From an uncultured Armatimonadetes bacterium (GTDB lineage Bacteria > Armatimonadota > Hebobacteria > Hebobacterales > Hebobacteraceae), in NCBI GenBank assembly GCA_963716175.1, contig OY970296.1, positions 2,528,001-2,592,000 of the forward strand: a stretch of DNA of 64,000 nt, given 5' to 3'. The translations under genes and the position numbers were made by a program. Below, piece after piece: positions 1 through 60,417 of this stretch. Each line of letters begins with the position of its first letter. Position 1 is the stretch's first letter. Below the pieces are notes generated by a model. It was not told the origin of the DNA, searched no databases, and saw nothing but the letters and a program-made list of their open reading frames with translations.

Positions 1-558
1 GTGGAGGTGGCGCGGGGGCAGTCCCGGGGCCTGGTGCCCGTGGTCTTGTCCGAGGAGGGGGTGGTGGACATGATGAGCACTATCCGCCGCCTCGACGACC
101 CCCCCTGGATCGTGTTCATCCACGATTTCCAGGAGGCGTATGAGCAGAGCCCGGAAGGGCCTGAGGCGAAGGTCTTCATTGACCAGTCCGGCGAGCTGAG
201 CCACAACTGGCAGCTCGTGGGCTGGGTGGGAGAGCCCGGCCTGGACTATGCCGGGGCTCACTTCCGTCTGGTGCGCGCTGGCAGCGGCGTCCAGCTCTCC
301 CTGGACCGGGATGTTGGTGTGCCCATCGTCTACCTCGGCTTGGTGGTGACCGCGCTGGGCTCGCTCTTGATCCTCGGAGGCCCGCGCCGGAGCCTGGTGG
401 CTCTCGTCGCCCCGCGTGGTCGGGGCTCCCAGGTGCTGGTGGGTCTGTCCCGCTCCCGTCGGGGCGGGGATGGTGAGAGGTTGCTGGAGCAGCTGCAGTC
501 CGAACTTGGGGCCGCCTCGGAGGCGGGGCCGCCCCGGGAAGGTGAGGAGACCAAGTGA
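1..558 (+). CDS. resB: Cytochrome c biogenesis protein ResB/Ccs1, C-terminal part (5' truncated by window edge)
   Basis: Ends with a GVQLSLDRDVGVPIVYLGLVVTALGSLL transmembrane segment typical of the ResB C-terminus; lies near a CcsA/ResC gene. Confidence 0.7.
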   Translation: MEVARGQSRGLVPVVLSEEGVVDMMSTIRRLDDPPWIVFIHDFQEAYEQSPEGPEAKVFIDQSGELSHNWQLVGWVGEPGLDYAGAHFRLVRAGSGVQLSLDRDVGVPIVYLGLVVTALGSLLILGGPRRSLVALVAPRGRGSQVLVGLSRSRRGGDGERLLEQLQSELGAASEAGPPREGEETK

Positions 559-1544
559 GACGCCAAGCAAGCGAACGGCGGGTCGGCCTGCGCCGCAAGA
601 GCGTGGCCGGGCTGATCCTGGTGGCGGGGGTGGCACTCGCCCTCCTGGCCGGTCCGCCGGCCCGTGGGGGTGTTCCCGCGGGGGCCAGCTATCTGGGCTC
701 GAAGCTGTGCGTCGCCTGCCACCAGGCCACCCATCCGCAAGCGGTGGCCGGGTGGGCGACCTCGGCTCACGCTCACACCCTCTGGCCGATTGAGGAGTCT
801 GACGAGAGCCAGAAGGTGGTGGCCGACTTCGCCAAGAGCGCGTTTCCCAAGGAGCAGGCCGCCTACGTGGTGGGCGCGGGCAACCGCTATCAGGCCTTCC
901 TGGACAAGGATCTCAAAGTGCTCCCAGGCGAGTGGGCGGCCAAGAGCAAGAGCTGGCGGCCCCGCGAGGCGATGGACGCCAGGCAGGACTGCCTGGGCTG
1001 CCACACCACCGGCTATGACCCGGCCGCCGCCCACTGGGTGGAGCTGGACGTAGCCTGCGAGATGTGCCACGGTCCCGGTTCAGTGCACGCCGGCTCCGCC
1101 GACAAGAAGGAGACCATCGTCATGGTGCAGAGCCTCGACCCGGCGCACCAGGCCATGGTCTGCGGGCAATGCCACTCCCAGGGCCGGAGCAAGGACAGCA
1201 AGTATCCCTTCCCGGTCGGCTTCCGCCCCGGGGATGACCTCGACCAGTTCTTCACCTACACTGAGGAAATCCCCAGGGGCGCCATGAACTCGCAGTACAA
1301 CGAGCTTCGCTTCGGCGGGGGCAAGCACCTGGCCTCAGGCACGGTCTGCACCACCTGCCACGACCCCCACGGCTCGGGCGTGCCCAATGAGCTCCGTGCG
1401 CCCGTGAACCAGCTCTGTCAGAAATGCCACACCAAGCTCACGGGGTCCCAGCATAGCAAGGAGGCGCTTGCCGTGGTGACGTGTGCCGTGTGCCACATGC
1501 CCGGTGGCAAGCACACCTTCGTGCCGCCGAAAGGCCTGCCCTGA
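555..1544 (+). CDS. Secreted multiheme c-type cytochrome (7 CxxCH)
   Basis: Hydrophobic signal peptide; CVACH, CLGCH, CEMCH, CGQCH, CTTCH, CQKCH, CAVCH. Confidence 0.9.
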   Translation: MRRQASERRVGLRRKSVAGLILVAGVALALLAGPPARGGVPAGASYLGSKLCVACHQATHPQAVAGWATSAHAHTLWPIEESDESQKVVADFAKSAFPKEQAAYVVGAGNRYQAFLDKDLKVLPGEWAAKSKSWRPREAMDARQDCLGCHTTGYDPAAAHWVELDVACEMCHGPGSVHAGSADKKETIVMVQSLDPAHQAMVCGQCHSQGRSKDSKYPFPVGFRPGDDLDQFFTYTEEIPRGAMNSQYNELRFGGGKHLASGTVCTTCHDPHGSGVPNELRAPVNQLCQKCHTKLTGSQHSKEALAVVTCAVCHMPGGKHTFVPPKGLP

Positions 1545-1561
1545 GCGAAGCCGAAGGGATC

Positions 1562-1634
1562 GTAGGGCGGGATTCATCCCCCCATGCAGTAGGGCGGGTC
1601 CGCGACCTGCCCAAGAACAGGTCCGCGACCTGCC
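1562..1634 (+). repeat. Two GTAGGGCGGG REP-like heads plus a duplicated GGTCCGCGACCTGCC
   Basis: gtagggcggg at 1562 and 1589; ggtccgcgacctgcc at 1597 and 1620. Confidence 0.6.
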
Positions 1635-1649
1635 TAGGAGATTCATCTC

Positions 1650-2609
1650 ATGCTGCGAGCTGAAGAGCTGCTCGTGCAAGCCGCGCTCGGCCTCTACCTG
1701 GCCGCCTTCCTCGGCTACGTGCTAGGGCTTGCGATTGGCTGGAGGAAAGCGGGCAAGGCCGCCACGGCTCTCGCCTGGCTGGGTCTGGTCGCCCAGTCTG
1801 TCATGCTCGTGATGCGCGGCCTGAGCGCCCGGCACGTGCCTCTGGTGAGCATGTACGAATACCTCACCGCTTTCTCCTGGATGGTGGTGCTCGCCTACCT
1901 GGTGTTTCAGGTGTGGGCGGGGCGCGGACCTGCCCTACCGGCCGACAGGGGGGTGCAGGTGGCCACGTCGCCTGAGGCGGCCGCCACGGCGGCCGGAGGC
2001 CTGGCCGCGGCCGCGGTGCCGGCGCTGGCGCTGGCGGTGGGGCTGCTCGCCTACGCCTCCTCCCTTCCCTCCCACCTCAAGCAGGCCGAGAGTCTGATGC
2101 CGGTGCTCAGGAGCGATTGGCTGATCTTCCACGTCTCCGTGGCGGTGATCGGCTACGCCGCCGCCGCGCTCGCCAGCGCTTTGGCGTGCCTCTACTTCGT
2201 CAGCTACTACGGGCTGCGGGCGGGCCCGCAGAGAGGTTCCCCTACGAACTCCAGGAGCTCCCGCTGGATAAGAGATCGGTTGCCTGCCGCACCCCTGCTG
2301 GACGAATACGTCTACCGGGTGGTGCGCTTCGCTTTCCCCTTCCTCACCCTGGTGAATGTGACCGGCGCCATCTGGGCCAACAATGCCTGGGGGCGTTACT
2401 GGGGTTGGGACCCCAAGGAGACCTGGTCACTGATCACCTGGCTGATCTATGTCTTCTATCTTCACGCCCGCCTGCGCGCGGGCTGGCGGGCCCCGCAAAC
2501 CAATGCCGTCGTGGTGGTAGGCATCGGCGCCATCCTGTTCACCTTCCTCGGAGTTAACCAGCTTGCGGCCTTCTCGGACAGCCTGCACTCCTATGCCCCT
2601 GGCGGTTAG
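1650..2609 (+). CDS. ccsA: Cytochrome c biogenesis protein CcsA/ResC (System II heme lyase)
   Basis: WWD motif GAIWANNAWGRYWGWDPKETWSLITWLIY; C-terminal SLHSY; multiple TM helices. Confidence 0.95.
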   Translation: MLRAEELLVQAALGLYLAAFLGYVLGLAIGWRKAGKAATALAWLGLVAQSVMLVMRGLSARHVPLVSMYEYLTAFSWMVVLAYLVFQVWAGRGPALPADRGVQVATSPEAAATAAGGLAAAAVPALALAVGLLAYASSLPSHLKQAESLMPVLRSDWLIFHVSVAVIGYAAAALASALACLYFVSYYGLRAGPQRGSPTNSRSSRWIRDRLPAAPLLDEYVYRVVRFAFPFLTLVNVTGAIWANNAWGRYWGWDPKETWSLITWLIYVFYLHARLRAGWRAPQTNAVVVVGIGAILFTFLGVNQLAAFSDSLHSYAPGG

Positions 2610-2676
2610 CACCGGGAGGGGATCTCAGCACTCTCGCAACCGGGGTGGGCATAGGCGCCAATCCGCTACGCTTCTG

Positions 2677-2721
2677 CTCGCACTTCGCAGCGAGCGAGCT
2701 TCGCTACTACGCAGAGCAGCA
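2677..2721 (+). repeat. 45-nt dispersed palindromic element, copy 1 (others at 3058-3102 and 26070-26113)
   Basis: ctcgcacttcgcagcgagcgagcttcgctactacgcagagcagca aligns with the other two copies. Confidence 0.6.
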
Positions 2722-4521
2722 GTGGCAGCGGCCTGGTGGCTGGCGCTCCTCGCCCTCGCCCGTCCCGGCGGCGCCGCCGTCATCTCGCCTGCTGTGCTGC
2801 GGGACAACAGCTTCTGCCTGGGGTGCCATGGGCCGGGCTCGCACGCCAAGGGCGCCCCCAGAGTTGAGCTCGGCGGCCAGGTCCACCAGACTCTGACCTG
2901 CGTGGACTGCCACCAGGAGGTGCGCAGCGTGCCCCATCAGCCCGCTCCGGTGAAGGTGGACTGCGGCCGCTGCCACAGCGAGGCCGCCCAGGAGGAGCTG
3001 CTGCCGGCAAAGGTCAGGATCGCGCCCGCGCTCAGCACCCATGCCGCCGCCAAGCAGCTCGTGCTTCGTAGCGAAGGAGCTCCGCCACTTCGCAGAGTAG
3101 CAAGCGGAGCTATCGGCAAGCCCGCCACACGGCCGGCGGGCAAGCCGGCCTGCCGCGACTGCCACGGCGATCACGACCTGCGCGCCCCTTCCGATCCCAG
3201 TTCCCGGCTCGGGCGCGAACACGTCGTCAGCACCTGCGGCGCTTGTCATCCCCGGATCGCCGCCGAGTATCGGGAGAGCGTGCACGGGCAGGCGCTGCTC
3301 GCCGGCAATCCCGATGTGCCGGCCTGCGACAACTGCCACCCCGAGCACCCAGCGGCGCAGCGGCTCGGCATCTCCCAGAGGGGGGTAGTTGCCACCTGCG
3401 TCTCCTGTCACGAGGACCCGGGGCTCCAGCAGCGCTACGCCATCCCCGGCAACCGATTGGCTAGCTACCTGGGAAGCTATCACGGAGCCGCCACTCAGCT
3501 CGGCGATAGCAGGACCGCGAACTGCGCCAGCTGCCACACCGCCCACCACATACTCCCCTCCAGCGACCCCCGCTCCTCGGTCAACCCGGCCAACCTGCCC
3601 AAGACCTGCGGCCGCTGCCACCCGGGCGCCACCGCTCATTTCGCTGAGGGCAAAATCCACCTTCAGCCTTCACCCAGGCAAGACCGGCCCGTGTTCTACG
3701 TGAAGGTGGCCTACCAGTTGTTCATCGTGGGCTTGATGACGGCCTTCCTGGGCTATATCGGCCTCGACCTGGCGGCCCGCTTCCAGGGCAAGCTCGGCCG
3801 CGGGGAAGCCCACCGGCATAGCCGGGACGAGCCCCAGTTCCAGCGGCTGACCTTCAACCAGCGCCTCCAGCACTGGGCGCTCATTCTCAGCTTCATCACG
3901 CTCCTGCTCACCGGGCTCCCGCTGGCCTCGCCCAAGTCGGCGGTGGCCCAGGGGTTGATCACTTTCCTGGGGGGTATGGGCGTCCGGTCGGCGCTGCACC
4001 GCGCGGCTGCTATCTTGCTGATCGCCATCGTCGGCTATCACGCCGTCTACGTGCTCTTCTCCCGCAAGGGCTACTGGGAGTTCCGTCAACTTCTGCCGGG
4101 CGCCCACGATGGCCTCGATCTGGCCCAGATGCTGGGCTTCTACTTCGGCCTCACCCCCGTCCGCCCCCGGTTTGGCCGCTACAACTACATCGAGAAGTTC
4201 GAGTACCTGGCCGTGGGCTGGGGTTCGGTAGTCATGATCGCCAGCGGGGCCCTGCTCTGGTCGCCACAGGTCAGCCTGATCTTCTTTCCCAAGTGGGTGA
4301 TGGACATCGCGCTGATCGTGCATGGCTGGGAGGCGATCCTGGCCTTTCTGGCGATCATCATCTGGCATATGTACAATGTGCACTTCAACCCATCGGTCTT
4401 CCCCATGAGCAAGGTCTGGCTCACGGGGAAGGTGGGCCTGCGTGAGTTCCGGGAGAACCATCCTCTGGAGTACGAAGCCTATCTCCGCCAGCGGCCGCAG
4501 GCCGAGGGGGAGCAGCCATGA
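2722..4521 (+). CDS. Multiheme cytochrome c (9 CxxCH) fused to an FdnI-like cytochrome b membrane domain (CbcL-like quinol oxidase); start uncertain
   Basis: Nine CxxCH, then TM helices with RLQHW, LHR, RYNYIEKFEY, HGWEAILA and IWHMYNVH motifs; GTG at 2722 begins a signal-peptide-like stretch. Confidence 0.85.
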   Translation: MAAAWWLALLALARPGGAAVISPAVLRDNSFCLGCHGPGSHAKGAPRVELGGQVHQTLTCVDCHQEVRSVPHQPAPVKVDCGRCHSEAAQEELLPAKVRIAPALSTHAAAKQLVLRSEGAPPLRRVASGAIGKPATRPAGKPACRDCHGDHDLRAPSDPSSRLGREHVVSTCGACHPRIAAEYRESVHGQALLAGNPDVPACDNCHPEHPAAQRLGISQRGVVATCVSCHEDPGLQQRYAIPGNRLASYLGSYHGAATQLGDSRTANCASCHTAHHILPSSDPRSSVNPANLPKTCGRCHPGATAHFAEGKIHLQPSPRQDRPVFYVKVAYQLFIVGLMTAFLGYIGLDLAARFQGKLGRGEAHRHSRDEPQFQRLTFNQRLQHWALILSFITLLLTGLPLASPKSAVAQGLITFLGGMGVRSALHRAAAILLIAIVGYHAVYVLFSRKGYWEFRQLLPGAHDGLDLAQMLGFYFGLTPVRPRFGRYNYIEKFEYLAVGWGSVVMIASGALLWSPQVSLIFFPKWVMDIALIVHGWEAILAFLAIIIWHMYNVHFNPSVFPMSKVWLTGKVGLREFRENHPLEYEAYLRQRPQAEGEQP

Positions 4522-6545
4522 ACCGCCTCAAGCTCTGCCTGCCCTTCGCGCCCCTCCTGAGACGGGTCCGGCTGCCCTTCGTCCGAAGGCGAGTGCCAGT
4601 GTGGGCGCTGGTCGTGATCGCCATTGTGGTGCTGGTGCCAGTCACCGGCGGAGCCATGGTCGCCACCAGCCAGCCCATCTTCTGCAAGTCCTGCCACGAG
4701 ATGAGTTTGCACTACGCCACCTGGAGCCAGTCGGCGCACCGGGACGTGAGCTGCGAGGAATGCCACGTCATGCCCGGCACCGCCAACATGTTCAAGAGCA
4801 AGATCAGGGCTCTCCGGTTGGTGAAGGCGCATGCCGCGGGCGATGTCAAGGCCACCGCCATCCAGGGGCATGTCCCGGATGCCAACTGCAAGCGGTGTCA
4901 CCCCCAGACGCCTGAGCTCGTGACCTATCACGGCCTGAAGATCACGCACCGGGACCATTGGAACATGGGGGTCAAGTGCACCTTCTGTCACGACCGGGTG
5001 GTGCATGGACCCAAGTGGCTCTATACCGGGGTCACCTCCTCCGAGAAGATCAAGGTGGTCTCCACTCCCTACAAGTTCACCCCGCAGATGGAGACCTGCT
5101 ACAAGTGTCACGACGGTAAGCGCGCCTCCAACAAGTGCTCCACCTGCCACGTCACCCTGGGTGAGCGTAAGCCCACCGCCTTCGACCCGGCCTGGGTGGA
5201 GGCCCATCGGGATGAAGTGCGCCGCACCGGGAAACAGGACTGCGAGCGCTGTCATCTGCCCTCCTTTTGCGACGCCTGCCACCGCGCGGCCAATCCCCAT
5301 CCCGGTGACTGGATCGCCCGCCACCCCCAGGAGGCGCGCAGGGATACCGCCGGCTGCTCCTCCTGCCATCTCGCCCCAGGGGAGCAGCGCCCCAAGCAGG
5401 TGAGGGATATGGCCTTCTGCCGGGCTTGCCATGGGCTGCGGCAGGAGCATCGCCAGGCCGACTGGCAGGTGATCCACGGCCGGGAGTCGCTCGCCAACCC
5501 GGCCTCTTGCCAGCGCTGCCACACCCAGAGCTGGTGCTCAGACTGCCATGCCATCAGCCGCCCGCACCCGCAGGAGTGGCTGGCGCGGCACCCCGCGGAG
5601 GCCAACCGCAACCCGGAGAGCTGCCGCGTCTGCCACACTCAGCAGTTCTGCGACGCTTGCCATCACGGCAAGCAGGGCATTCCCGCCTCCCATCAGCAGG
5701 ACTGGCTCACCCGCCACAAGGACGCCGCCCGCCAGGGCCAGGAGACCTGCGCCGTCTGTCATAAGACTGGCTTCTGCCAGAGCTGTCACGCCAAGCAGGC
5801 ACCCACCAGTCACGGCCCCCAATGGCTGAGCCAGCATGGCCCGGCGAGCAGAGCCCAGCCTGCCTCCTGCCTGCTCTGCCACAAAGAACAGCACTGCAAC
5901 CAGTGTCATGGCCTGACTATGCCCCATCCGAAGCTGTGGCTGGCCTCCCATCACAAGGCCGCCGCGCAGAACGAGGCCCTGTGCGAGCGCTGCCATCAGA
6001 AGCAGGCCTGCGACAGCTGTCACCGGGGCGCCTTCCCGGCCTCCCATCAGCCCTCGGACTGGATGAGCCGCCACGGCGCGGAGACGAAGAAGCCCGCCGC
6101 GCAGTGCAGCCTCTGTCACCGCCGGGAGTTCTGCTCCTCCTGTCACGGCGTAGCCATGCCGCATCCCTCCGGATGGAGAGGTCCGCCCCACGGCGCCGCC
6201 GCGCAGAAGGAGCAGACGGTCTGCCTGCGCTGCCATCAGGAGAGCCAGTGCGCCAAGTGCCACGGCCTGGCCATGCCGCATCCGAGCAATTGGATGACCG
6301 AGCATGGGAAGAAGGCGACAGCTTCCCCTGCCCTATGTGGCACTTGCCATGGGCCCGGTCGTCATGACTGCGCCACCTGCCACACTGCCCTGGCCCCATC
6401 CAGCCACCAGCAGGAGAACTGGCGGCAGCAGCACGGCCAAGCAGGAGCGGCCTCCACCGCGCTCTGCTCGCTCTGCCACGGGAAGAATGCTTGCGCTGAT
6501 TGCCACGCGCGGCAGGCCGGGAGGGGCGCCGCAAAGGGCAGTTAG
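4518..6545 (+). CDS. Membrane-anchored NapC/NirT-type multiheme cytochrome with 28 CxxCH and 11 tandem diheme repeats
   Basis: N-terminal TM helix, then TSQPIFCKSCHEM...WSQSAHRDVSCEECH (NapC/NrfH-like); 28 CxxCH counted by eye. Confidence 0.9.
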   Translation: MNRLKLCLPFAPLLRRVRLPFVRRRVPVWALVVIAIVVLVPVTGGAMVATSQPIFCKSCHEMSLHYATWSQSAHRDVSCEECHVMPGTANMFKSKIRALRLVKAHAAGDVKATAIQGHVPDANCKRCHPQTPELVTYHGLKITHRDHWNMGVKCTFCHDRVVHGPKWLYTGVTSSEKIKVVSTPYKFTPQMETCYKCHDGKRASNKCSTCHVTLGERKPTAFDPAWVEAHRDEVRRTGKQDCERCHLPSFCDACHRAANPHPGDWIARHPQEARRDTAGCSSCHLAPGEQRPKQVRDMAFCRACHGLRQEHRQADWQVIHGRESLANPASCQRCHTQSWCSDCHAISRPHPQEWLARHPAEANRNPESCRVCHTQQFCDACHHGKQGIPASHQQDWLTRHKDAARQGQETCAVCHKTGFCQSCHAKQAPTSHGPQWLSQHGPASRAQPASCLLCHKEQHCNQCHGLTMPHPKLWLASHHKAAAQNEALCERCHQKQACDSCHRGAFPASHQPSDWMSRHGAETKKPAAQCSLCHRREFCSSCHGVAMPHPSGWRGPPHGAAAQKEQTVCLRCHQESQCAKCHGLAMPHPSNWMTEHGKKATASPALCGTCHGPGRHDCATCHTALAPSSHQQENWRQQHGQAGAASTALCSLCHGKNACADCHARQAGRGAAKGS

Positions 6546-6720
6546 CTCCCGCGCCGCGGGTGAGGGCCGAATCGCCCAAGACCGCGACGCCCAGAGCAGG
6601 GAACGCGCCGCCAGGCGGACAACCGCGGGGAACGAAGGGACCTTCGTCCAGATGCTGATCGGAAGCTCCAGGGGGGAGGGGGAGCCAGAGGAGGCGCCAG
6701 GCCAGGGATCGGACGCGAGC

Positions 6721-7194
6721 ATGGCCTCGGTCAGCCGCCGGCGGTTTCTCAGCTATCTCAGCGGCTTGCTCACTGGGTTGATCGCGGTGGCCTTGGGCCT
6801 GCCCCTGGTCCGCTTCTACGTGGGCAACGCGTTCCAGCAGAGAGCGGCGCGGTGGCTCAAGCTGGGGCCGAGGGCGGAGGTGCCAATAGGCCGCCCCACG
6901 CTGTTCCGTCTCAGCTATGTGGAGCAGGAGGGGTGGCGGGACACTACCCGGCGGGAAGAGGTCTACGCGGTTACCCAGGATGGGCGGAACTACCTGGTGC
7001 TCTCGAACATCTGCACCCATCTGGGCTGCCCGGTGCGGTGGGATGACAGAGTTCGAGCTTACCTCTGCCCGTGCCACGGCGGTATGTTCGCCGCGGATGG
7101 CCGGGTGCTGAAGGGGCCACCCCCGAGGCCTCTTCTCCGCTTGCCGCACAAGTTCGAGGGCGGCGTTCTCTATGTCCGGGTCGGGGGAGGCTGA
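6721..7194 (+). CDS. qcrA: Rieske [2Fe-2S] subunit of a Rieske/cytochrome b complex
   Basis: Tat-like SRRRFL plus TM anchor; CTHLGC and CPCHGG boxes; GPPPRPL. Confidence 0.93.
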   Translation: MASVSRRRFLSYLSGLLTGLIAVALGLPLVRFYVGNAFQQRAARWLKLGPRAEVPIGRPTLFRLSYVEQEGWRDTTRREEVYAVTQDGRNYLVLSNICTHLGCPVRWDDRVRAYLCPCHGGMFAADGRVLKGPPPRPLLRLPHKFEGGVLYVRVGGG

Positions 7195-7196
7195 CC

Positions 7197-9310
7197 GTGT
7201 TTCGCAGGCTGCTCCGGTGGGTTGACGAGCAGACCGAACTGGTCAGCCTACTCCGCCAGTTCATGGAGGAACCGCTCGCGCGGGGCGTGGGTTGGCCCCA
7301 CGTTTTCGGCGGCGCCGCTCTCTTCCTCTTCATCGTGCAGGCCTGCACCGGCGTGCTGCTGGCGGTCTACTATGTGCCTTCGCCCGTGGCCGCCTACCAG
7401 TCCACCTCCTACCTCAGCATGTCCGTTCCCCTGGGCAGCGTGGTGCGCAGCCTCCACCACTGGGGGGCAAGCGCCATGCTGGTGGTGGTGTTCGTGCACA
7501 TGCTGCAAGCCTTCTTCTGGGGCGCTTACAAGCGGCCTCGCCAGATCGTCTGGGTGATCGGTGTGTTCCTGCTCCTGGCCACCCTGGGGCTCAGCTTCAC
7601 CGGATATCTCCTTCCCTGGGATCAGAAGGCCTACTGGGCCACCGTCGTGGGCACCCGCATCGCCGGCAGCCTGCCGGTGGTGGGAACCTACATCACCACC
7701 CTCATCCGGGGCGGCCCCAGTGTGGGGGCGCTCACTATCACCCGGTTCTTCGGCCTGCACGTCTTGATCTTCCCCGCGCTGCTCATCGCACTGATCGCGT
7801 TCCACATCTCACAGGTGCGCATGAAGGGCATCACCGCGCCCTGGCGCCGAGTGGGTGACGAAGACGCCGTGCCCCACCCCGGGCTCTTCTACCCCGACCA
7901 GGTGTTCAAGGATGTAGTGGCGGCCCTGCTGCTCTTGGCCCTGCTTTTCGCCATTGCCGTCCGCTATCCGGCGCCGCTGGAAGCCATCGCCAACCCCACC
8001 AGCACCGGCTATGTGCCTCGCCCCGAGTGGTACTTCCTGCCCAACTTCCAGCTTCTCAAGTACTTCCCCGCGGCCTGGGGCGAGTGGGGTGAGTTCTCCG
8101 GCGCCATCCTCATCCCGGCCCTGGTAGTGCTGCTGCTCATCTTGTTGCCGTACCTGGACTACAATCCCAATCGGCGGCCCCGCCGTCGTCCTTTCGTCAC
8201 CGCTGCCGCGCTGGCCAGCCTCTTCGGCCTCAGCTATCTGGGCGTCGAAGGCGCGAAGAGTGGGCCCAGACCGGTGACTCTCACCGCGACGCAGGCGCGG
8301 GGCGAGAAGGTGTTCCTGGACCTGCGCTGTCAGTCATGCCATGGCATCAACGGCGGCGGCGGCATGGAGGGAGTGGATCTTGCCCAGGGCGGGCCCCGGG
8401 ACCCCCGGAAGGTGGCCGAGAAGCTGCGCTTCCCCACCAGGTCCAACCCCCGTTCGGTCATGCCCCCGGTGCCCAGCAGCCTCAGCCCGGCCGGCTTCGA
8501 TGCCTTGGTGGCCTTCGCCTCGGCCATTGACACTCGCTTCCAGATGCCGACGGTGGCCCCGGTTGGGCCCACCAAGCCCCTCTCTCACTATGAGGAGAAC
8601 TGGTTCGCCAACCACAAGTACGAGGTGCGCAAGGATCCCACCGTCTGCGCCCAGTGCCATCAGCCCAGCTTCTGTCAGAGCTGCCATCGCAATCGCAGAC
8701 CCGATTCGCACCTGCATCGCTGGCTCGAGTTCCATGCTGGGACCGCGCGCGAGCAGCCCGAGTACTGCCAGGTCTGTCACGAGAAGAGCTTCTGCAACGC
8801 CTGCCACAGCAAGCTGATGCACACCTCCGACTGGCTGCACCGGCATGACGAGGCCGGAAGGACACAGTACGAATGTGCCTGCAGTGCCATCAGGAAGGCG
8901 AATGTACCTCCTGCCACCGGGGCGCGACGCCGGTCAGCCACGCCCGCAAAGACTGGGTACACTCTCACCAAGGGGCAAAGGCGGCGGAATGCCGGACCTG
9001 CCATCGCGAGAGCTTCTGTATCACCTGCCATGAGGGAGCCAGGCCCAGGTCGCACGATGCCAGCTGGCTTTCTCGCCATGGCGCGGCCGCCAAAGCGCAG
9101 CCAGCGGGATGCCGCACCTGCCACGCGGCCAGCTTCTGCAGCAGCTGCCATGGAGGTGTGACCATGCCCCATCCGGCTAACTGGGTGATCGCGCACAGGG
9201 TACAGGCGAGCTTTGCCCCCGGCTCAGTCTGCTATCGCTGTCACCAGTACAAGCAGGACTGCGCCAAGTGCCACGGAGAATGGCCGCCTGAGCCGGGCGC
9301 CGGTGGGTGA
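7197..9310 (+). CDS. qcrB: Cytochrome b(6) + subunit IV fused to a monoheme c domain and six diheme repeats (13 CxxCH); frameshift near 8870
   Basis: RSLHHWGAS, TGYLLPWDQKAYWA and PEWY motifs; 5 CxxCH before the shift and 8 in ORF 8873-9310, which continues the same repeat register. Confidence 0.88.
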
Positions 9311-9361
9311 ACAGAGGGCGGGCATGCTTCTGCCCGCCTGATTGACCGGGAAGGACAACGC

Positions 9362-10549
9362 ATGATCGGTTTCACGAAACTGCTCTGCGGGAAGGCCACG
9401 GTGTCCCGCGCCCTGCGCCAGGCCGCGGGTGGGCTACAACGAGACCCGGCCTTACTGCAGTTCACTACTGCTCACCGTCCCCTCGTGGTCTGGAACACGA
9501 CCGCCCGCTGCAATCTCCGGTGCGCTCACTGCTACAACGATGCCGGGCCTCAGGCCAGCGGCGAACTCAGCACCGCGGAGGCCGAGGGCCTGATTGATGA
9601 TCTGGCGCAGATGGAAGTCCCGGTGCTTCTGTTCTCCGGCGGCGAGCCCGTGCTCAGGGATGACATCTTGCATCTCGCCGCCTACGCCTTTGATCGCGGA
9701 CTGCGCCCTGTGCTTTCCACCAACGGGACGCTGATTGACGCCGAGGTGGCGCAGGCGCTCGCCCGGGCCCGCCTCCAGTACATCGGGGTTTCGATTGACG
9801 GCCTGCCGGACACCCACGATCGCTTCCGCTGCCAGGAAGGGGCCTGCGCCGCGGCTTGGCAGGGGGTTCGCAGCGCCCGCGACGCGGGCCTGCGGACTGG
9901 CGTCCGCTTCACCGTCACGCGCGAGAACGTGGATGAGCTGCCCGGCGTTCTTGACCAGGCCGTCTCGGAAGGGGTAAACCGCTTCTGCCTCTACCACCTG
10001 GTCTACTGCGGGCGCGGCGCCGCGCTCGCCGACCGCGATCTCTCCCCGGCGCGCCGCCGCGAAATGATCCAGTGGCTGGTGCGCAGAACCGAGGAGCTTC
10101 ACCATCAGGGCCGCGAGATCGAGATCCTGACCACCGACCAGCATGCGGACGGCGTCTTCCTCTATCGCCTGATCGCGCAGCGCGATCCCAACCGGGCGGC
10201 CGAGGTGCTAGAGCTGCTGGGCATGCACGGCGGGTGCTCGGCCGGCACGAAGTTCGCCAACATTGATGCTCAGGGCAATGTGCACCCCTGCCAGTTCTGG
10301 GGGCACGAAGCCGTCGGCAATGTGCGCGAGCGCCCTTTCTCTCGCATCTGGCGAGACCCCGATCAACCTGTGCTCTGCGGACTGCGAGAGCTGCAGCAGC
10401 AGCTGCGAGGCCGCTGTCGGGAATGCGCCTACCGGCATTACTGCGGAGGCTGTCGCATCCGCGCCCAGGCCGTCAGCGGCGACCTCTGGGGCCCCGACCC
10501 GGCCTGCTATCTGAGCGATGAAGAGATAGCCGCCGAGGCGGTGTCGTAG
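9362..10549 (+). CDS. ahbC: Radical SAM/SPASM protein, AhbC/NirJ1-type 12,18-didecarboxysiroheme deacetylase
   Basis: MIGFTKLLCG N-terminus; VVWNTTARCNLRCAHCY; YHLVYCGRG; SPASM cysteines; next to ahbAB. Confidence 0.85.
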   Translation: MIGFTKLLCGKATVSRALRQAAGGLQRDPALLQFTTAHRPLVVWNTTARCNLRCAHCYNDAGPQASGELSTAEAEGLIDDLAQMEVPVLLFSGGEPVLRDDILHLAAYAFDRGLRPVLSTNGTLIDAEVAQALARARLQYIGVSIDGLPDTHDRFRCQEGACAAAWQGVRSARDAGLRTGVRFTVTRENVDELPGVLDQAVSEGVNRFCLYHLVYCGRGAALADRDLSPARRREMIQWLVRRTEELHHQGREIEILTTDQHADGVFLYRLIAQRDPNRAAEVLELLGMHGGCSAGTKFANIDAQGNVHPCQFWGHEAVGNVRERPFSRIWRDPDQPVLCGLRELQQQLRGRCRECAYRHYCGGCRIRAQAVSGDLWGPDPACYLSDEEIAAEAVS

Positions 10550-11575
10550 ATGGAGGGAGCGCCGGACCTGGCCCCGGAAGACAAGGCCCTCCTCACGCTT
10601 GCCCAGGCCTCCTTTCCCTTGGTGCAGAGGCCCTTCGCCGCGCTTGCCGGCAAGGTGGGTCTGAGCGAGGAAGCCGTGATCGCCCGGATGACCGCGCTGA
10701 AGGCATCGGGCCTGATTCGCAAGATCGGCCCCGTGTTCGAGCCCGCGCGGCTCGGCCTCACGACTGAGCTGGTGGCGGTGGAAGTGGCGCCGCCAGACCT
10801 GGAGACGGCCGGGGCCGCGGTGGCGGCCTGGCCTCCGGTGACGCATTGCTACGCCCGCGAGCACCGCGTCAACCTCTGGTTCACTGGCGCCGCATCCGGG
10901 GAGGCCTGGTTTGCGTGCGCCGCGGCTCGTGCCGCCGCCCTTCCCGGGGTGTGCGGCGTATGGCGGCTCCCGGCGGTGCGGCGCTTCAAGATCGCGGTCC
11001 ACTTCGACCTGATGGCCGGTCCCGATCCCCCCGCGGGTCGGACTTGCCCTTCACCGTCCGAGACGCCCGCACCGCCTCCGCCCCGGTGGTCTGGCTCCGA
11101 TCTCTCGCTGCTGCGAGCGGTGGAGGCCGATCTGCCTCTATGCCCCGAGCCCTTTGCTGCGCTCGCCTCCTCTCTCGCCATGGCGCCCGAGGACCTCCTG
11201 GGGAACTTGCGCCAGTGGGTGGCCGATGGTCGCATCCGGCGCTATGGCGCATTGGTGAACCACCGGCGCCTCGGGTTCGTCGCCAATGCGATGACCGTCT
11301 GGTCGGTGCCAGATGACCGTCTGGAGACGGTCGGGCGGTGTCTCGCGACCTCGCCCTCCGTCTCCCACTGCTACCAGCGTCCGGCCTTCCCGGATTTCCC
11401 TCACAACCTCTATGCGATGGTGCACGCTCAATCCCGGGCCAGGTGTCTCGACTTGATCCGGGAGCTTTCCCGCAAGTGCGGAGCGGGCGATCCCGTCCCG
11501 CTCTTCTCCACCAGGGAGTTCAAGAAGGCCGCCCCTCGCTACTCCGAGCTGCTTACCTCCGGCCCGTTGCTGTAG
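10550..11575 (+). CDS. ahbAB: Siroheme decarboxylase, fused AhbA-AhbB (NirDL/NirGH-like)
   Basis: Two Lrp/AsnC-like halves: FPLVQRPF...VTHCYAR...NLWFT and LPLCPEPF...VSHCYQRP...NLYAMVH...REFKK. Confidence 0.88.
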   Translation: MEGAPDLAPEDKALLTLAQASFPLVQRPFAALAGKVGLSEEAVIARMTALKASGLIRKIGPVFEPARLGLTTELVAVEVAPPDLETAGAAVAAWPPVTHCYAREHRVNLWFTGAASGEAWFACAAARAAALPGVCGVWRLPAVRRFKIAVHFDLMAGPDPPAGRTCPSPSETPAPPPPRWSGSDLSLLRAVEADLPLCPEPFAALASSLAMAPEDLLGNLRQWVADGRIRRYGALVNHRRLGFVANAMTVWSVPDDRLETVGRCLATSPSVSHCYQRPAFPDFPHNLYAMVHAQSRARCLDLIRELSRKCGAGDPVPLFSTREFKKAAPRYSELLTSGPLL

Positions 11576-11648
11576 GGCGGGCATGTGGCTAGGTCGCCAG
11601 TGGGCGACCGCCATCCCGGCCTTCAGGCCTAGGGACCCATGCCCGCCC
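11571..11648 (+). repeat. GTAG-type REP element overlapping the ahbAB stop codon
   Basis: tgtagggcgggcatg...catgcccgccc. Confidence 0.7.
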
Positions 11649-11755
11649 AGGTGCGAGCCTGGCCCCGCAGACAACCCCTGGTGACCTCGCGCGGCCCCGT
11701 CACTCTTTCTTCTTGCTTTTTTCCCCGAACTTTCGGCGGGCCCGCTCCGGCCGCG

Positions 11756-11818
11756 CTTGACACCGGGCAGCGGGGATGAGATAGTATTTCCGAGTATTCC
11801 GATTCGAAAGATAGGAAA
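11756..11818 (+). promoter_or_regulatory. Sigma70-like promoter and putative Rrf2/IscR-type autoregulatory operator
   Basis: TTGACA at 11756 with an AT-rich -10-like tract about 17-19 nt downstream; imperfect palindrome TTCCGAT-N7-ATAGGAA directly before the start codon. Confidence 0.55.
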
Positions 11819-12265
11819 ATGCTAAAGCTTTCCACTCGATCCCGCTACGCCTTGCGCGCGATGATTGAACTCGCCCGCCACGAGGGCCGCGGCCCGGTGC
11901 TGCTGCGCCGGGTGGCAGAGGCGCAGCGGATCTCCCCAAAGTACCTGGAGCAGCTCACTATCCCCCTCCGCAGGGCTGGGTTGCTGCGGGGTGAGAGAGG
12001 GCCGAGCGGCGGCTACGAACTTGCCAAGCCGGCCCCGGAGATCACTGCCCTGGACATCGTGGCTGCCGTCGAAGGGCCCTTGGACTTGCTGAGCTGTGTT
12101 GGCAACGCGACCGCGTGCGATCGCACCGCCACCTGTGCCGCGCGCCAGCTCTGGGTGCGAGTGGGCGAGGCCATGAGCAGAGCGCTGGCACGGGAGACGT
12201 TGGCCGACCTCAGCGAAAGCCAGCGCGCGGCGAGCCAGGCCGACGCCTTCTCCTACCAGATCTGA
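11819..12265 (+). CDS. Rrf2 family transcriptional regulator (IscR/CymR-like)
   Basis: LSTRSRYALRAM, YLEQL, RGPSGGY; three C-terminal Cys; ends with YQI. Confidence 0.92.
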   Translation: MLKLSTRSRYALRAMIELARHEGRGPVLLRRVAEAQRISPKYLEQLTIPLRRAGLLRGERGPSGGYELAKPAPEITALDIVAAVEGPLDLLSCVGNATACDRTATCAARQLWVRVGEAMSRALARETLADLSESQRAASQADAFSYQI

Positions 12266-12298
12266 CCCTGGGAGAGAGCGACACACCAGGAGGTTCGC

Positions 12299-13468: not shown

Positions 13469-13475
13469 AGATAGC

Positions 13476-13712
13476 ATGACGGCCCCTGAGCCCGACGCGA
13501 CCATTGACCTGCGAGGCACCCCCTGTCCCCTGAACTGGGTGAAGACGAAGCTGAGGTTGGAGCGGATGCAGCCGGGTCAGGTGCTGGAGGTGGTCGTGGA
13601 CGATGGCGCCCCTGCCCGAAACGTCCCGCGCAGTGTCGAGGCCGAGGGGCATCGGGTGTTGGCCATGACCAACGGCGCTGGGCGAGTCCGCATCTTGATC
13701 CAACGGCAATGA
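13476..13712 (+). CDS. tusA: TusA/SirA family sulfurtransferase
   Basis: IDLRGTPCPLNWVKTKL...GQVLEVVVDD. Confidence 0.88.
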   Translation: MTAPEPDATIDLRGTPCPLNWVKTKLRLERMQPGQVLEVVVDDGAPARNVPRSVEAEGHRVLAMTNGAGRVRILIQRQ

Positions 13713-13892
13713 CCCTGGAGGGGAGGCGCGGCTTTGGTTGACGGCGATGACTGTCCTTACCCGAGAGCTGAGAGACTGCTACAGTCGGCGCATCCAGGCG
13801 AACGGACTCGGGGGCGGCGGCCAGCCTGGACGCCTGGCCGCCGCCAGAGGCTAGGGGCACTCCCGCCCCAGATGCTGAGCTAGGGCCGATCC

Positions 13893-14879: not shown

Positions 14880-14884
14880 CGCCC

Positions 14885-14956: not shown

Positions 14957-15029
14957 CCGCATGCCCGCCCTACAGGGCTTCGCGGCCGCGCTGGAGGAAA
15001 GCGCCTCAGCACCCAGAAGCTCAAGCTCG

Positions 15030-60412: not shown

Positions 60413-60417
60413 GGCCG

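Follow-up and report, generated by a model that had tools for sequence, protein, structure and literature searches.

A conserved multihaem cytochrome gene cluster of uncultured Armatimonadota with a possible role in extracellular electron transfer

The multihaem gene cluster at one end of the 64,000-nucleotide stretch of DNA analysed here (the window), which comes from an uncultured Armatimonadetes bacterium, appears on balance to encode the inner half, in the cytoplasmic membrane and periplasm, of an extracellular electron transfer system kept in an uncultured clade of Armatimonadota. In the mechanism we propose, three membrane modules would join the (mena)quinone pool to chains of c-haems on the outer face of the membrane. 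The first would be an NrfH-type tetrahaem quinol dehydrogenase extended by 24 haems into a rod-like haem wire with a single anchor, and the second a CbcL-like protein in which nine c-haems are coupled to a dihaem b-type membrane domain. The third would be a Rieske/cytochrome b6-type complex in which a single fusion protein combines cytochrome b, subunit IV, a monohaem cytochrome c and a further twelve haems, the latter apparently in the same type of dihaem repeat as in the 28-haem protein. Electrons might then pass, directly or by way of a 7-haem cytochrome, to an outer-membrane conduit, which in relatives is a fused MtrA-like decahaem/MtrB-like barrel protein and here would probably be encoded beyond the window edge. 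The flow is most likely outward, with Fe(III)/Mn(IV) minerals, humics, electrodes or a partner cell as the respiratory acceptor; an earlier note on this DNA spoke of quinol "exits", a word that presupposes a direction which sequence alone cannot give. That the three modules might work at different potentials is an analogy with Geobacter. No published description of the cluster was found in a literature search, in keeping with the earlier view of it as a possibly undescribed EET or DIET module; the findings are not specific to DIET.

Gene order and haem motifs of the cluster

Positions 1–11575 of the + strand encode, in this order, a ResB fragment, a 7-haem cytochrome, CcsA, a 9-haem/dihaem-b protein, a 28-haem NrfH-like protein, a Rieske protein, a cytochrome b6/subunit-IV/cytochrome c fusion, AhbC and AhbAB (table 1). 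Both this order, claimed previously as a single run on one strand, and the claimed total of 57 CxxCH motifs are borne out; the motifs are spread over five reading frames (7+9+28+5+8) that represent four genes, one of them frame-shifted, and all 57 lie on the + strand of positions 1–12000. The other 52 kb of the window hold one CxxCH in six-frame translation, no CxxCH occurs in its 41 other predicted proteins (16,582 aa in total), and the concentration of motifs in the cluster is not due to chance. The run had been placed at 555..11575 with resB as its first gene; the order stands, but resB lies outside that start and is truncated by the window edge, leaving only its C-terminal piece. Because G+C is even along the window (0.64–0.69), the "respiratory island" of the earlier note can mean a gene cluster only. 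Nor is the earlier description of the cluster as self-contained supported: in addition to the cut resB, AhbD and the early steps of haem synthesis are absent from the window, and no outer-membrane component, terminal reductase or acceptor, or acceptor-specific gene is visible in it.

Table 1. Features of the multihaem gene cluster and the adjoining regulator in the window
Position	Strand	Feature	Basis
1..558	+	ResB (Ccs1) C-terminal fragment, system II cytochrome c maturation	Weak Pfam ResB, synteny
555..1544	+	7-haem c-type cytochrome, 329 aa, N-terminal signal/anchor helix	7 CxxCH
1650..2609	+	CcsA/CcsB, haem-handling protein of system II	Cytochrom_C_asm, TIGR03144
2563..4521	+	CbcL-like protein: signal peptide, nine c-haems, transmembrane b-type domain of the FdnI/HydC kind	9 CxxCH, Ni_hydr_CYTB
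4518..6545	+	28-haem membrane-anchored cytochrome	28 CxxCH, NapC/NirT N-terminal region
6652..7194 (ORF 6304–7194)	+	Rieske [2Fe-2S] protein, twin-arginine signal/anchor	Pfam Rieske 4.2e-10
7197..8869	+	Cytochrome b6-like and subunit-IV-like domains, monohaem class I cytochrome c, first two dihaem repeats	First frame of broken gene
8866..8873	+	Frame break, one base gained or lost compared with intact orthologs	tblastn with L010 protein
8873..9310	+	Final four dihaem repeats of the cytochrome b fusion, with 8 CxxCH	Shifted frame
9362..10549	+	Radical SAM/SPASM enzyme, AhbC-like (12,18-didecarboxysirohaem deacetylase)	Radical_SAM, SPASM domains
10550..11575	+	AhbA+AhbB fusion, sirohaem decarboxylase	Both equivalogs above cut-offs
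11757..12265 (site 11757–11785; regulator 11819–12265)	+	Promoter-like site and Rrf2-family regulator	Rrf2 6e-39

The ResB fragment, which has one predicted transmembrane segment, matches Pfam ResB below the cut-off (e value 0.002, profile positions 419–477 of 486); it is 43–46% identical to the matching region of the gene in the same position in two Armatimonadota relatives, L001 and L010, and the L001 piece matches ResB at 9.4e-14. CcsA has at least six predicted transmembrane segments and a WGWD motif, and matches Cytochrom_C_asm (7e-43) as well as the NCBIfam CcsB equivalog (219.8 bits, cut-off 187.6). The AhbAB fusion contains two NirdL-like HTH and two AsnC_trans_reg2 domains and scores 230.7 bits with AhbB (cut-off 125) and 175 with AhbA (cut-off 140). 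For the radical SAM protein the top match is TIGR04546 AhbC at 445 bits, under the cut-off of 650, and NirJ1 (420) and NirJ (382) are likewise under their own cut-offs. These system II and Ahb genes are co-oriented with the three membrane modules, in agreement with the dedicated haem synthesis and attachment proposed earlier, and the run is probably transcribed as one unit with its own ResB/CcsA and AhbC/AhbAB genes. The sole promoter-like site in positions 1–14000 and the Rrf2 regulator probably mark the start of the next transcription unit. The head of the L010 cluster carries an Rrf2 protein 61% identical to this regulator, which is possibly tied to the multihaem cluster.

The 28-haem, CbcL-like and 7-haem proteins

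The 28-haem protein is composed of an NrfH-like tetrahaem module (residues 1–165) with one transmembrane helix (residues 30–48), two more haems and eleven dihaem repeats (residues 242–675, about 5241–6542 in the window) of 38–51 aa each, the last of which is partial with 26 aa. It shares the tetrahaem quinol-dehydrogenase module with NrfH but carries 24 additional haems, 22 of them in the repeats. It matches Cytochrom_NNT with 37.8 bits (cut-off 24.1), its N-terminus matches NrfH (2j7a_C) at 6.5e-8 with the CxxCHxM motif aligned, and Foldseek relates its model to NrfH only (probability 0.92). We found 292 homologs; those with a named source and at least 36% identity belong to Armatimonadota and Eremiobacterota MAGs. 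In an alignment of 64 sequences the CxxCHxM of the first haem is invariant; 21 of the 28 CxxCH motifs are strictly invariant, in six at least one of the three residues reaches only the 90%-or-more class, and one (C331, C334, H335) has residues in both classes. Among the 20 distal histidines assigned to repeats 1–10 in the same sequences 13 are invariant and five nearly so, with H630 and H639 in neither list. The model is haem-free and of moderate confidence (pLDDT 71, pTM 0.37), and its dihaem repeats matched no solved fold in Foldseek, so the rod shape is put forward tentatively.

In the CbcL-like protein, for which ATG 2593 is an alternative start, the nine c-haems precede the b-type domain (residues 433–608), which has predicted transmembrane segments and matches Ni_hydr_CYTB (44.7 bits, cut-off 30.1), the formate dehydrogenase gamma model (7e-14) and FdnI in the PDB (1kqf_C, 1.8e-5). 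The genes for this protein and the 28-haem protein lie within a few kb of each other in all 12 of the 12 closest loci. The 7-haem cytochrome, whose hydrophobic segment spans residues 16–34, matches Paired_CXXCH_1, Cytochrome_C7 and Cytochrome_C554, and its PDB sequence matches are 6qvm_A (3.9e-8), 6r2q_A (6.7e-8) and 6i5b_A (4.5e-6); it resembles cell-surface cytochromes of the OcwA/OmhA group. All three modules show features of quinol-interacting proteins, as previously claimed: in the NrfH-type protein a transmembrane anchor and a CxxCHxM first haem, in the second an FdnI/HydC-like b-type domain joined to nine c-haems, and in the third a Rieske protein and a cytochrome b with PEWY and the b6-type spacings H-x13-H/H-x14-H.

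Relatives, the outer-membrane conduit and the direction of electron flow

The complete gene order is repeated in two Armatimonadota genomes, L001 and L010 (ResB, 7-haem homolog, CcsA, CbcL-like, 28-haem, Rieske, cytochrome b fusion, radical SAM), and in both a gene for a fused MtrA-like decahaem/MtrB-like barrel protein lies immediately upstream of resB. The 975-aa product of this gene in L010 matches chain A of the Mtr complex (5.6e-39), and its C-terminal 676 aa form a confident predicted barrel (pLDDT 84, pTM 0.81) whose top structural match is 6r2q_B (e value 1e-22, TM 0.71/0.73; runner-up TM 0.42). The same fusion is present in seven more proteins of 962–1017 aa, L003 encodes the decahaem as a separate gene followed by a protein matching MtrB_PioB, and L007 encodes an MtrC-like 8-haem protein beside its own decahaem. 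The link between the window and the MtrAB-like fusion is synteny in two relatives with 59–67% identity. Because the conduit of these relatives lies directly upstream of resB, the lack of a porin in the window, correctly stated in the earlier note, probably reflects where the window was cut, and synteny suggests that the MtrAB-like conduit of this genome probably lies just past that edge, upstream of resB. The fusion also lends support to the earlier reading of the cluster as an extracellular electron transfer module. The Geobacter counterparts GSU2203 (OmcK) and GSU2204 are increased with haematite and magnetite according to Table 2 of PMC4070692.

No MtrC-like extracellular cytochrome was seen adjoining the conduit in L001 and L010, a pattern of decahaem and barrel that is shared with MtoAB and PioAB. 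MtrAB-type conduits that lack such a partner are given as typical of Fe(II) oxidizers in the excerpted text of PMC5566968, where the inner-membrane protein proposed to reduce quinone together with MtoAB/PioAB is of the NapC/NirT type or a b-c fusion. Inward flow therefore fits this conduit as well as outward flow: the same hardware could import electrons, with Fe(II), reduced minerals, a cathode or a syntrophic partner as the donor. The electrons would enter by the MtrAB-like conduit, travel along the haem wires and reduce menaquinone at the NrfH-like and CbcL-like modules, with the Rieske/cytochrome b complex perhaps running in reverse, driven by proton-motive force, and the uptake ultimately feeding CO2 fixation by the Wood–Ljungdahl pathway. 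A complete-looking Wood–Ljungdahl cluster is indeed encoded 15 kb downstream (26186–49576), and b cytochromes of the FdnI type, a domain present here, are quinone reducers in their best-known setting, formate dehydrogenase-N. However, electrons at the potential of menaquinone cannot power ferredoxin-dependent CO2 reduction unless another source of energy is available, and no gene for an oxidase, nitrate reductase or photosystem can be seen. Moreover, Wood–Ljungdahl genes and multihaem cytochromes are described in literature excerpts as also marking Fe(III)-reducing CO/acetate oxidizers among Bacillota, and L007 does have an MtrC-like protein beside its decahaem. We therefore regard electron import as unlikely.

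Distinctly unlikely is a function in periplasmic respiration of a soluble acceptor (nitrite, hydroxylamine, sulfur oxyanions, selenite or tellurite), in which the 7-haem cytochrome would be the catalytic reductase and the long haem arrays electron reservoirs rather than trans-envelope wires. NrfH, the type to which the quinol module belongs, has the nitrite reductase NrfA as its textbook partner, the cytochrome b fusion scores best in NCBIfam with ExtP, a model from a selenite/tellurite reduction operon, and the 7-haem protein resembles members of the OcwA/OmhA group. The excerpted text of PMC7829351 describes OcwA as resembling, in its structure, octahaem enzymes of nitrogen and sulfur metabolism. 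However, the cut-offs of the NrfH equivalog (52 vs 134 bits) and ExtP (226 vs 290 bits) are both missed. No NrfA, HAO, molybdopterin, copper or sirohaem reductase adjoins the cluster in the window, and neither these nor any other adjoining soluble-substrate reductase was found among the Pfam-scanned ORFs of seven relatives (L001, L003, L005, L007, L009, L010 and L012); L004 was covered by ORF and CxxCH counts. Furthermore, a soluble periplasmic substrate would hardly account for 24 extra haems on a single anchor or for the adjoining MtrAB-like fusion in relatives.

The Rieske/cytochrome b complex and its frame break

The Rieske protein, whose likely start is 6652 or 6721, contains CTHLGC, CPCHG and SRRRFL and matches the Rieske models for bc1 and b6f complexes (8e-19 to 1e-17), in each case short of the model's cut-off. 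The cytochrome b fusion, with a GTG start at 7197 preceded by GGGGGAGG, matches Cytochrome_B (3e-44), Cytochrom_B_C (3e-10) and Cytochrom_C (5.8e-5), and its seven transmembrane segments (six scored, the seventh by eye at about residues 335–352) would put the c-haem tail outside. Rieske centres normally feed high-potential acceptors, whereas chains of bis-His haems tend to have low potentials, which leaves the energetics of this module unexplained and weighs against the proposed mechanism.

A cytochrome b with 13 c-haems, as described in the earlier note, exists as a single 707-aa ORF with 13 CxxCH in L010, whereas in the window the gene is frame-shifted and the motifs are divided 5+8. In tblastn the intact L010 protein follows one frame to about 8869 (68% identity) and another from 8871 (54% identity of the second piece with the L010 C-terminus); the frame from 7197 encodes five CxxCH and then nonsense as far as 9161, and the public gene call for the broken gene, P0145, is a 654-aa protein. 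Were the shift real, one of the three membrane modules would be dead in this organism, but a true mutation that leaves this module or the whole operon non-functional is very improbable: although the gene is broken as sequenced, the shifted 145-aa piece lacks both a signal peptide and a predicted hydrophobic segment, and the L001 copy is likewise broken, DUF6785 is split alike in the window (profile 1–379 in one frame, 374–498 in another), ACS and a pterin-binding protein look split too, and the source, a 4.56-Mb contig, fits an insertion/deletion-prone long-read assembly, as we infer the sequencing method to be. In addition, G+C by codon position, with the frame 8873–9310 itself left out, is gene-like past the break, all eight haem motifs beyond it are intact, and all other genes of the run align near full length with their orthologs. 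The cytochrome b/multihaem fusion occurs in about 85 full-length clusters, all named ones from Armatimonadota.

The cytochrome gene run and its cofactor supply

The first 11.6 kb of the window form a single co-oriented gene run on the + strand, in which neighbouring genes nearly abut or overlap (4521/4518, 7194/7197, and 10549/10550). Six-frame translation gave 57 CxxCH motifs (7 + 9 + 28 + 5 + 8) on the + strand of positions 1–12000, which reproduces the total proposed in an earlier note made from the sequence alone, and one in the other 52 kb, located within 60001–64000; the window's 41 other predicted proteins (16,582 aa) contain none. The density of CxxCH motifs in the run is far above chance. 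G+C content is even across the window, so that the cluster bears no mark of foreign DNA, and the idea of a horizontally acquired island, which finds no compositional support, was dropped. In a consensus scan, which is not tuned to this phylum, the sole promoter-like site (11757–11785) precedes the Rrf2 gene that follows the run, and no internal promoter or terminator within 555–11575 rose above the shuffled expectation. The position of the sole promoter-like site 3' of the run is weak evidence that positions 1–11575 may be one transcription unit. Nowhere in the window did an Rfam family attain its gathering score.

Features of the cytochrome run and of the Wood–Ljungdahl region, in window positions
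Feature	Positions	Strand	Basis or genes included
ResB-like protein, C-terminal end only, cut at window edge	1–558	+	Pfam/NCBIfam and relatives
7-CxxCH cytochrome, 329 aa	555–1544	+	Pfam/NCBIfam
CcsA/CcsB	1650–2609	+	Pfam/NCBIfam
9 CxxCH, then b-type cytochrome membrane domain	2563–4521	+	Pfam/NCBIfam
28-CxxCH protein, 675 aa	4518–6545	+	Pfam/NCBIfam
Rieske protein	about 6652–7194	+	Pfam/NCBIfam
Cytochrome b	7197 onward	+	Pfam/NCBIfam
AhbC-like radical SAM enzyme	9362–10549	+	Pfam/NCBIfam
AhbA/AhbB fusion, sirohaem decarboxylase	10550–11575	+	Pfam/NCBIfam
Wood–Ljungdahl genes	26186–49576	+	CooC-like ATPases, NuoE/NuoF-like and Fe–S proteins, CODH, formate–THF ligase, FolD, methylene-THF reductase C-domain, ACS, both corrinoid Fe–S subunits, RACo, pterin-binding methyltransferase

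The maturation and haem-synthesis genes of the run appear, from these assignments, to be dedicated to the cluster. Both parts of the system II maturation machinery are encoded: the CcsA/CcsB protein with its WWD domain (WGWD in the translation) scores 219.8 bits against the CcsB equivalog cut-off of 187.6, and ResB/Ccs1 is present as a cut fragment only. The AhbA/AhbB fusion scores above the cut-offs of both equivalog models, and the radical SAM enzyme encoded before it has AhbC as its best match, below the cut-off (445 versus 650 bits), with NirJ-type models close behind. The window holds no second, AhbD-like radical SAM gene; one each is found at L001, L007, and L010, three loci of relatives that carry a homolog of the 28-haem protein. 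At L010 the cluster is framed by Rrf2 (61% identical to the window's), HemA, and HemC (L010:2–1780 and L010:19188–20192); HemA is glutamyl-tRNA reductase and HemC porphobilinogen deaminase, and early haem-synthesis genes thus travel with the cytochrome genes there. In the window, genes for an Rrf2-family regulator, for a cysteine desulfurase of the NifS type (534 bits; cut-off 531), and for a sulfur transporter resembling YeeE/TsuA come after the cluster (11819–14879, +), and their products may supply Fe–S clusters for the Rieske and radical SAM proteins.

Three putative quinol-interacting modules

Three membrane modules, a 28-haem NrfH-type protein, a nine-haem CbcL-like protein, and a Rieske protein with a cytochrome b fusion, bear sequence marks of quinol-interacting proteins, each with c-haems predicted on the outer face. 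The 28-haem protein has one transmembrane helix (residues 30–48) and a NapC/NirT-type tetrahaem region (PF03264, 37.8 bits against a cut-off of 24.1, residues 31–163), its first four CxxCH lying at residues 56, 79, 124, and 154; with this single N-terminal anchor and profile-recognised tetrahaem domain it belongs to the NapC/NirT/NrfH family. Like NrfH and CymA, it has one transmembrane helix at the N-terminus, four CxxCH within about 160 aa, and the CxxCHxM motif, whose Met reportedly ligates the quinol-site haem in NrfHA structures. A sequence search aligns the tetrahaem region with Desulfovibrio NrfH (2j7a_C, E 6.5e-8), the NrfH-type first haem site reading CKSCHEM here and CTSCHIM in 2j7a_C, and C56, C59, H60, and M62 are invariant among 64 sequences. 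The protein nevertheless falls outside NrfH proper (TIGR03153, 52 bits against an equivalog cut-off of 134.2), and it differs in size, with 675 aa and 24 additional haems compared with about 140–190 aa and 4 haems in NrfH and CymA. It also differs in its surroundings: NrfA, the partner of NrfH, is absent beside it, and neither the window nor the Pfam-scanned ORFs of seven relatives contain a candidate.

The tetrahaem region is followed by two haems and then by eleven dihaem units of 38–51 residues, the last shortened to 26, with the pattern CxxCH-x4-CxxCH ... H ... W ... H, which gives the protein a haem density of 24 residues per haem. In an alignment of 64 homologs with 38–77% identity, 21 of the 28 CxxCH motifs are strictly invariant, six have at least one of their three residues only in the class conserved in at least 90% of sequences, and the remaining one (C331, C334, H335) is split between the two classes. 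Thirteen of the 20 distal His named in repeats 1–10 are invariant in this alignment and five nearly so; H630 and H639 are in neither of its conservation lists, yet they reach 90% in an 18-sequence alignment. The conserved distal His fit bis-His ligation of the repeat haems, as judged from the sequence. The AlphaFold2 model (pLDDT 71, pTM 0.37) is haem-free; in Foldseek its N-terminus matches NrfH only (probability 0.92) and its repeats have no significant match, GSU1996 being returned from the PDB at a nonsignificant E of 6.3. With the whole protein as query, a PDB sequence search also returned NrfH only. A solved nanowire- or MtrA-type fold was considered for the repeats and set aside for want of a Foldseek match, a result that, with a haem-free model of moderate confidence, is uninformative either way. 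As the model is haem-free, that the protein is a rod-like haem wire is something we infer.

The nine-haem protein combines a signal peptide and nine c-haems with a Ni_hydr_CYTB/FdnI-like membrane domain that carries several conserved-looking His (PF01292, 44.7 bits against a cut-off of 30.1; FdnI 1kqf_C, 1.8e-5; about 5 transmembrane segments predicted). It shares the architecture described for CbcL, nine c-haems plus an FdnI/HydC-like dihaem b domain; the available part of one source describes CbcL of Geobacter as nine His–His c-haems on a membrane b-type cytochrome (PMC13591261). In the ESM Atlas this architecture is widespread in Acidobacteriota, Myxococcota, Gemmatimonadota, and Planctomycetota. 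The 7-haem protein encoded nearby has weak but significant sequence matches to 6qvm_A, 6i5b_A, and 6r2q_A, which we take to be OmhA, OcwA, and MtrA.

The third module has the features of bc1/b6f-type complexes: in translation, the Rieske protein carries SRRRFL and both Rieske boxes (CTHLGC and CPCHG), and the cytochrome b carries H-x13-H and H-x14-H pairs, PEWY, and a subunit-IV-like C-terminal domain, with PF00355, PF00033, PF13631, and PF00032 all above their cut-offs. The H-x14-H spacing marks b6-type cytochrome b. Six hydrophobic segments were scored in the cytochrome b and a seventh was read by eye, and with seven segments the c-haem tail would sit on the outer face. Its twelve extra haems belong to the same repeat type as those of the 28-haem protein (30–44% identity between repeats). 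The best NCBIfam model for the N-terminal part is ExtP (E 3.9e-67, 226 bits against a cut-off of 290). Fusions of cytochrome b with a multihaem part form about 85 full-length clusters of 660–906 aa, and every named one is from Armatimonadota.

In the window the reading frame of this gene is interrupted. From a GTG start at 7197, preceded by GGGGGAGG, the frame encodes the cytochrome b, the subunit-IV-like domain, a monohaem cytochrome c, and two dihaem repeats (5 CxxCH), followed by ~97 nonsense residues up to 9161; the other 8 CxxCH lie in a different frame (8873–9310) that has no signal peptide. At L010 the ortholog occupies one ORF of 707 aa that contains 13 CxxCH, and a tblastn search with it gave 68% identity to about 8869 and 54% from 8871 in the shifted frame, which places a one-base insertion or deletion at about 8866–8873. 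This break is probably an assembly error, a judgement based on other split genes in the window and on the kind of assembly suggested. The DUF6785 gene is split, with profile positions 1–379 in one frame and 374–498 in another (about 17282–17300), and two more genes appear to be: the N-domain of ACS and the remainder of that protein are in different frames (about 40831–40870), and a pterin-binding domain is shortened beside an overlapping ORF (about 48249–48379), which suggests an indel-prone assembly. P0145, the window's own public cytochrome b gene call of 654 aa, is on a contig of 4.56 Mb, suggestive of long-read assembly. Gene decay through a real mutation is possible for the cytochrome b gene only, where it is favoured by the L001 copy, which is likewise broken in a chromosome-level MAG; against it, at least one other window gene, that for DUF6785, is split in the same way.

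Relatives and an outer-membrane conduit

In a large protein collection the 28-haem protein has 292 homologs, of which those named at 36% identity or more come from Armatimonadota and Eremiobacterota MAGs and are labelled only "NapC/NirT family cytochrome c". In the ESM Atlas, the large clusters nearest to it have 257–386 aa (one 718 aa) and are mainly from Actinomycetota and Bacillota. From a scan of species-representative genomes we kept 79 loci with homologs of the 28-haem protein. The twelve closest are mostly from Armatimonadota MAGs, two carrying the titles Bacillota bacterium and metagenome and three the title bacterium alone, and more distant loci (24–31% identity) are from Actinomycetota and Bacillota including cultured Neobacillus species. 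The distant NapC-like proteins are shorter and carry 10–12 haems in the five loci examined (two from Neobacillus, others from Carboxydothermus and Actinomycetota); a search for a functional clue from cultured relatives found no paper on Neobacillus multihaem proteins. The NrfH-type proteins of eight annotated loci carry 26, 28, 28, 28, 28, 28, 32, and 37 CxxCH. At L009, from an unclassified MAG, three haem-rich genes with 22, 37, and 22 CxxCH stand in a row (L009:4683–6815, 10004–12370, and 14504–16039), next to a split Rieske/b6/subunit IV set and two CbcL-like genes; no other locus that we saw has a denser version of the module.

A CbcL-like gene lies within a few kb of the 28-haem homolog in all twelve closest loci, five of which also have a Rieske gene. 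Synteny, which the earlier note had named as a check on its proposed respiratory island, proved to be conserved: the full gene order ResB, 7-haem homolog, CcsA, CbcL-like protein, 28-haem protein, Rieske protein, cytochrome b fusion, and radical SAM enzyme recurs at L001 (67% identity) and L010 (59%). The same note had seen no porin in the window, and indeed we found there no porin family match, no further CxxCH-rich gene, and no decahaem cytochrome encoded together with a large barrel; in L010 and L001, however, an MtrA/MtrB-like fusion is encoded upstream of resB. Because the window begins inside resB, an equivalent conduit gene would lie just outside it. In relatives, linkage of the cluster to an MtrAB-like conduit is conserved.

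The gene directly upstream of resB in L010 (L010:1786–4710) encodes 975 aa that join an MtrA-like decahaem part to an MtrB-like barrel, and a homolog 40% identical to it occupies the same position in L001 (L001:1–2634). Its N-terminal 300 residues match 6r2q_A (5.6e-39), chain A of an entry that we take to be an Mtr complex, with MtrA as chain A and an MtrB-type barrel as chain B. The N-terminal region of P0238, a homolog of 985 aa that is 60% identical to the C-terminal part of the L010 fusion, passes the DmsE-family decahaem cut-off, and the tenth CxxCH of the L010 and L001 fusions lies inside the barrel part. The C-terminal 676 residues of the L010 protein end in ...RKQF and match the GSU2204-family model (2.6e-35) and, weakly, Porin_4. 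Modelled from an alignment of 61 sequences, the barrel part is almost all-beta (pLDDT 84, pTM 0.81), and its best Foldseek match is 6r2q_B (E 1e-22, TM 0.71/0.73), followed by a TonB-dependent transporter (TM 0.42). Scores stay below the cut-offs of the GSU2203 (238 versus 325 bits) and GSU2204 (142 versus 350 bits) models. In the accessible portions of two sources, the GSU2204 family is tabulated as an MtrB/PioB-family barrel (PMC13188914), and GSU2203 (OmcK) and GSU2204 rise with haematite and magnetite (Table 2 of PMC4070692).

Seven further proteins of 962–1017 aa share the decahaem–barrel fusion. Whereas MtrCAB, MtoAB, and PioAB have the decahaem cytochrome and the barrel on separate polypeptides, the relatives at L010 and L001 have one polypeptide of about 960–1017 aa. 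The literature that we found describes no such fusion; the only fused porin–cytochrome that appears in it is Cyc2, which has a single haem (PMC5566968). Two other loci differ in arrangement: at L003 a separate decahaem cytochrome precedes a protein of 613 aa that scores above the MtrB_PioB cut-off, and L007 has a decahaem cytochrome, a 555-aa protein, and an MtrC-like 8-haem protein. The 555-aa protein is at most a candidate porin, with no Pfam or NCBIfam match at relaxed thresholds and a nonsignificant E of 0.061 against the L003 candidate.

Electron flow and comparison with known systems

In the outward reading that we prefer, menaquinol would be oxidised at the NrfH-type, CbcL-type, and Rieske/b6-type sites, electrons would cross the periplasm along the haem chains to the conduit and leave to an insoluble or extracellular acceptor, and the Rieske/b module would add a proton-motive Q cycle. 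The ten haems of MtrA extend over roughly 8 nm and the twelve of GSU1996 over roughly 12 nm; by analogy, we estimate that 24 single-file haems would span on the order of 20 nm, about the width of the periplasm. A bolder proposal, which we put forward tentatively and consider unlikely, is a hard-wired trans-envelope circuit without diffusible periplasmic carriers, in which the single-anchor 28-haem rod would bridge the periplasm and plug straight into the one-polypeptide MtrA–MtrB conduit, and the Rieske/cytochrome b6 complex, through an arm of 13 haems of its own, would tie a proton-motive Q cycle to that outlet as well. If it were true, a Wood–Ljungdahl-bearing Armatimonadota lineage would gain an energy-conserving and possibly reversible link from its quinone pool to minerals, electrodes, or partner cells.

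Inward electron flow is a serious rival to the outward reading. A decahaem cytochrome and barrel without an MtrC partner is the pattern of MtoAB and PioAB in Fe(II) oxidisers, according to the available part of one source (PMC5566968), and a complete-looking Wood–Ljungdahl cluster, a possible electron sink or source for the cytochrome cluster, lies 15 kb downstream of the run. A periplasmic system acting on a soluble substrate is less likely, since neither the genes adjacent to the run in the window nor the Pfam-scanned ORFs of seven relatives include a reductase for such a substrate.

With electrons flowing outward, the system would by analogy work like the Geobacter quinol:cytochrome c oxidoreductases that feed porin–cytochrome conduits and like CymA–MtrCAB of Shewanella. 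Geobacter (ImcH, CbcL, CbcBA, and predicted Cbc3–6) also has several quinol-linked multihaem modules per organism, which, as far as the accessible text goes, serve acceptors of different potential (PMC13591261). It uses small soluble periplasmic cytochromes, whereas two of the window's modules have 13- and 28-haem extensions of their own, and unlike the Geobacter set the modules here are clustered in one run with maturation and haem-synthesis genes. By curated cut-offs, the proteins of the window and its relatives are not members of NrfH proper, ExtP, GSU2203, or GSU2204; ExtP, from a selenite/tellurite operon of Geobacter, has a model of 205 positions compared with about 704 aa, subunit IV, and 13 c-haems for the window gene. 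In Kuenenia, Rieske/cytochrome b complexes (Kustd1480–1485 and Kuste4569–4574) are reported, in the part of the source available, with separate hexa- or octahaem subunits, a multihaem c replacing cytochrome f or c1, and cytochrome b–c fusions are noted in Gram-positive bacteria (PMC12954380). The likeness is that a multihaem cytochrome c accompanies subunit IV and a cytochrome b of the b6 kind. The difference is that b6, subunit IV, a monohaem c, and 12 haems make up one polypeptide here, whereas the multihaem subunits of Kuenenia are separate; the window's run contains no NAD(P) oxidoreductase or HAO-like subunit.

Among the Gram-positive metal reducers (Carboxydothermus ferrireducens with OmhA and SmhC; Thermincola potens with OcwA), the 7-haem protein resembles cytochromes through its matches to 6qvm_A and 6i5b_A, at low similarity (E 1e-6 to 1e-8 over about 180 residues). 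These organisms lack an outer membrane, whereas the relatives at L010 and L001 encode an MtrB-like barrel. For C. ferrireducens, a putative quinol oxidase with 20 haems is described and large membrane-associated multihaem proteins are proposed as quinol oxidases, the candidates in the available text having CISM-family anchor domains, in contrast to the NrfH-type module here (PMC7829351).

Four elements appear to be new: an NrfH-type anchor extended by 24 haems, a single chain that unites b6, subunit IV, c, and 12 haems, the grouping of three quinol modules with the genes for their cofactor supply, and, in relatives, the decahaem–barrel fusion. Full-text searches, whose coverage lay outside subscription journals and supplements, returned no description of the cluster, the 28-haem NrfH-type family, or the 13-haem cytochrome b fusion, and papers on Wood–Ljungdahl-bearing Armatimonadota do not mention these elements in the portion available (PMC10290634). 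The literature searched likewise held nothing on extracellular electron transfer in Armatimonadota. What is understood of this process comes mainly from Shewanella, Geobacter, and a few thermophilic Gram-positive bacteria. If the outward or inward reading is true, a widespread phylum, most of it uncultured, would be added to the lineages that respire minerals or electrodes or that consume electrons, and this with a different design, in which membrane-anchored quinol dehydrogenases with very long haem wires of their own are combined with a fused decahaem–barrel conduit. It would also provide a natural example in which a long low-spin haem chain is fed by a Rieske/cytochrome b complex, and this matters for the amount of energy that a cell can conserve when it exports electrons. 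The dihaem repeat (38–43 residues, 18–24 residues per haem) would be a compact building block of interest for protein-based conductors.

Elsewhere in the window, two large ORFs of 755 and 951 aa (58120–60387, +, and 60418–63273, –) have gene-like codon-position G+C and no Pfam match at 1e-5. Two proteins (19318–20424, –, and 21047–22063, –) combine an N-terminal methylation motif with DUF1559, a pairing that is typical of and abundant in Planctomycetota and Armatimonadota and so agrees with the taxonomy to which the best homologs point. Glycoside hydrolases of families 5, 20-like, and 9, one with a twin-arginine signal, are encoded at 14904–16145, 18187–19221 (–), and 23505–26036, and these enzymes suggest a polysaccharide-degrading lifestyle.
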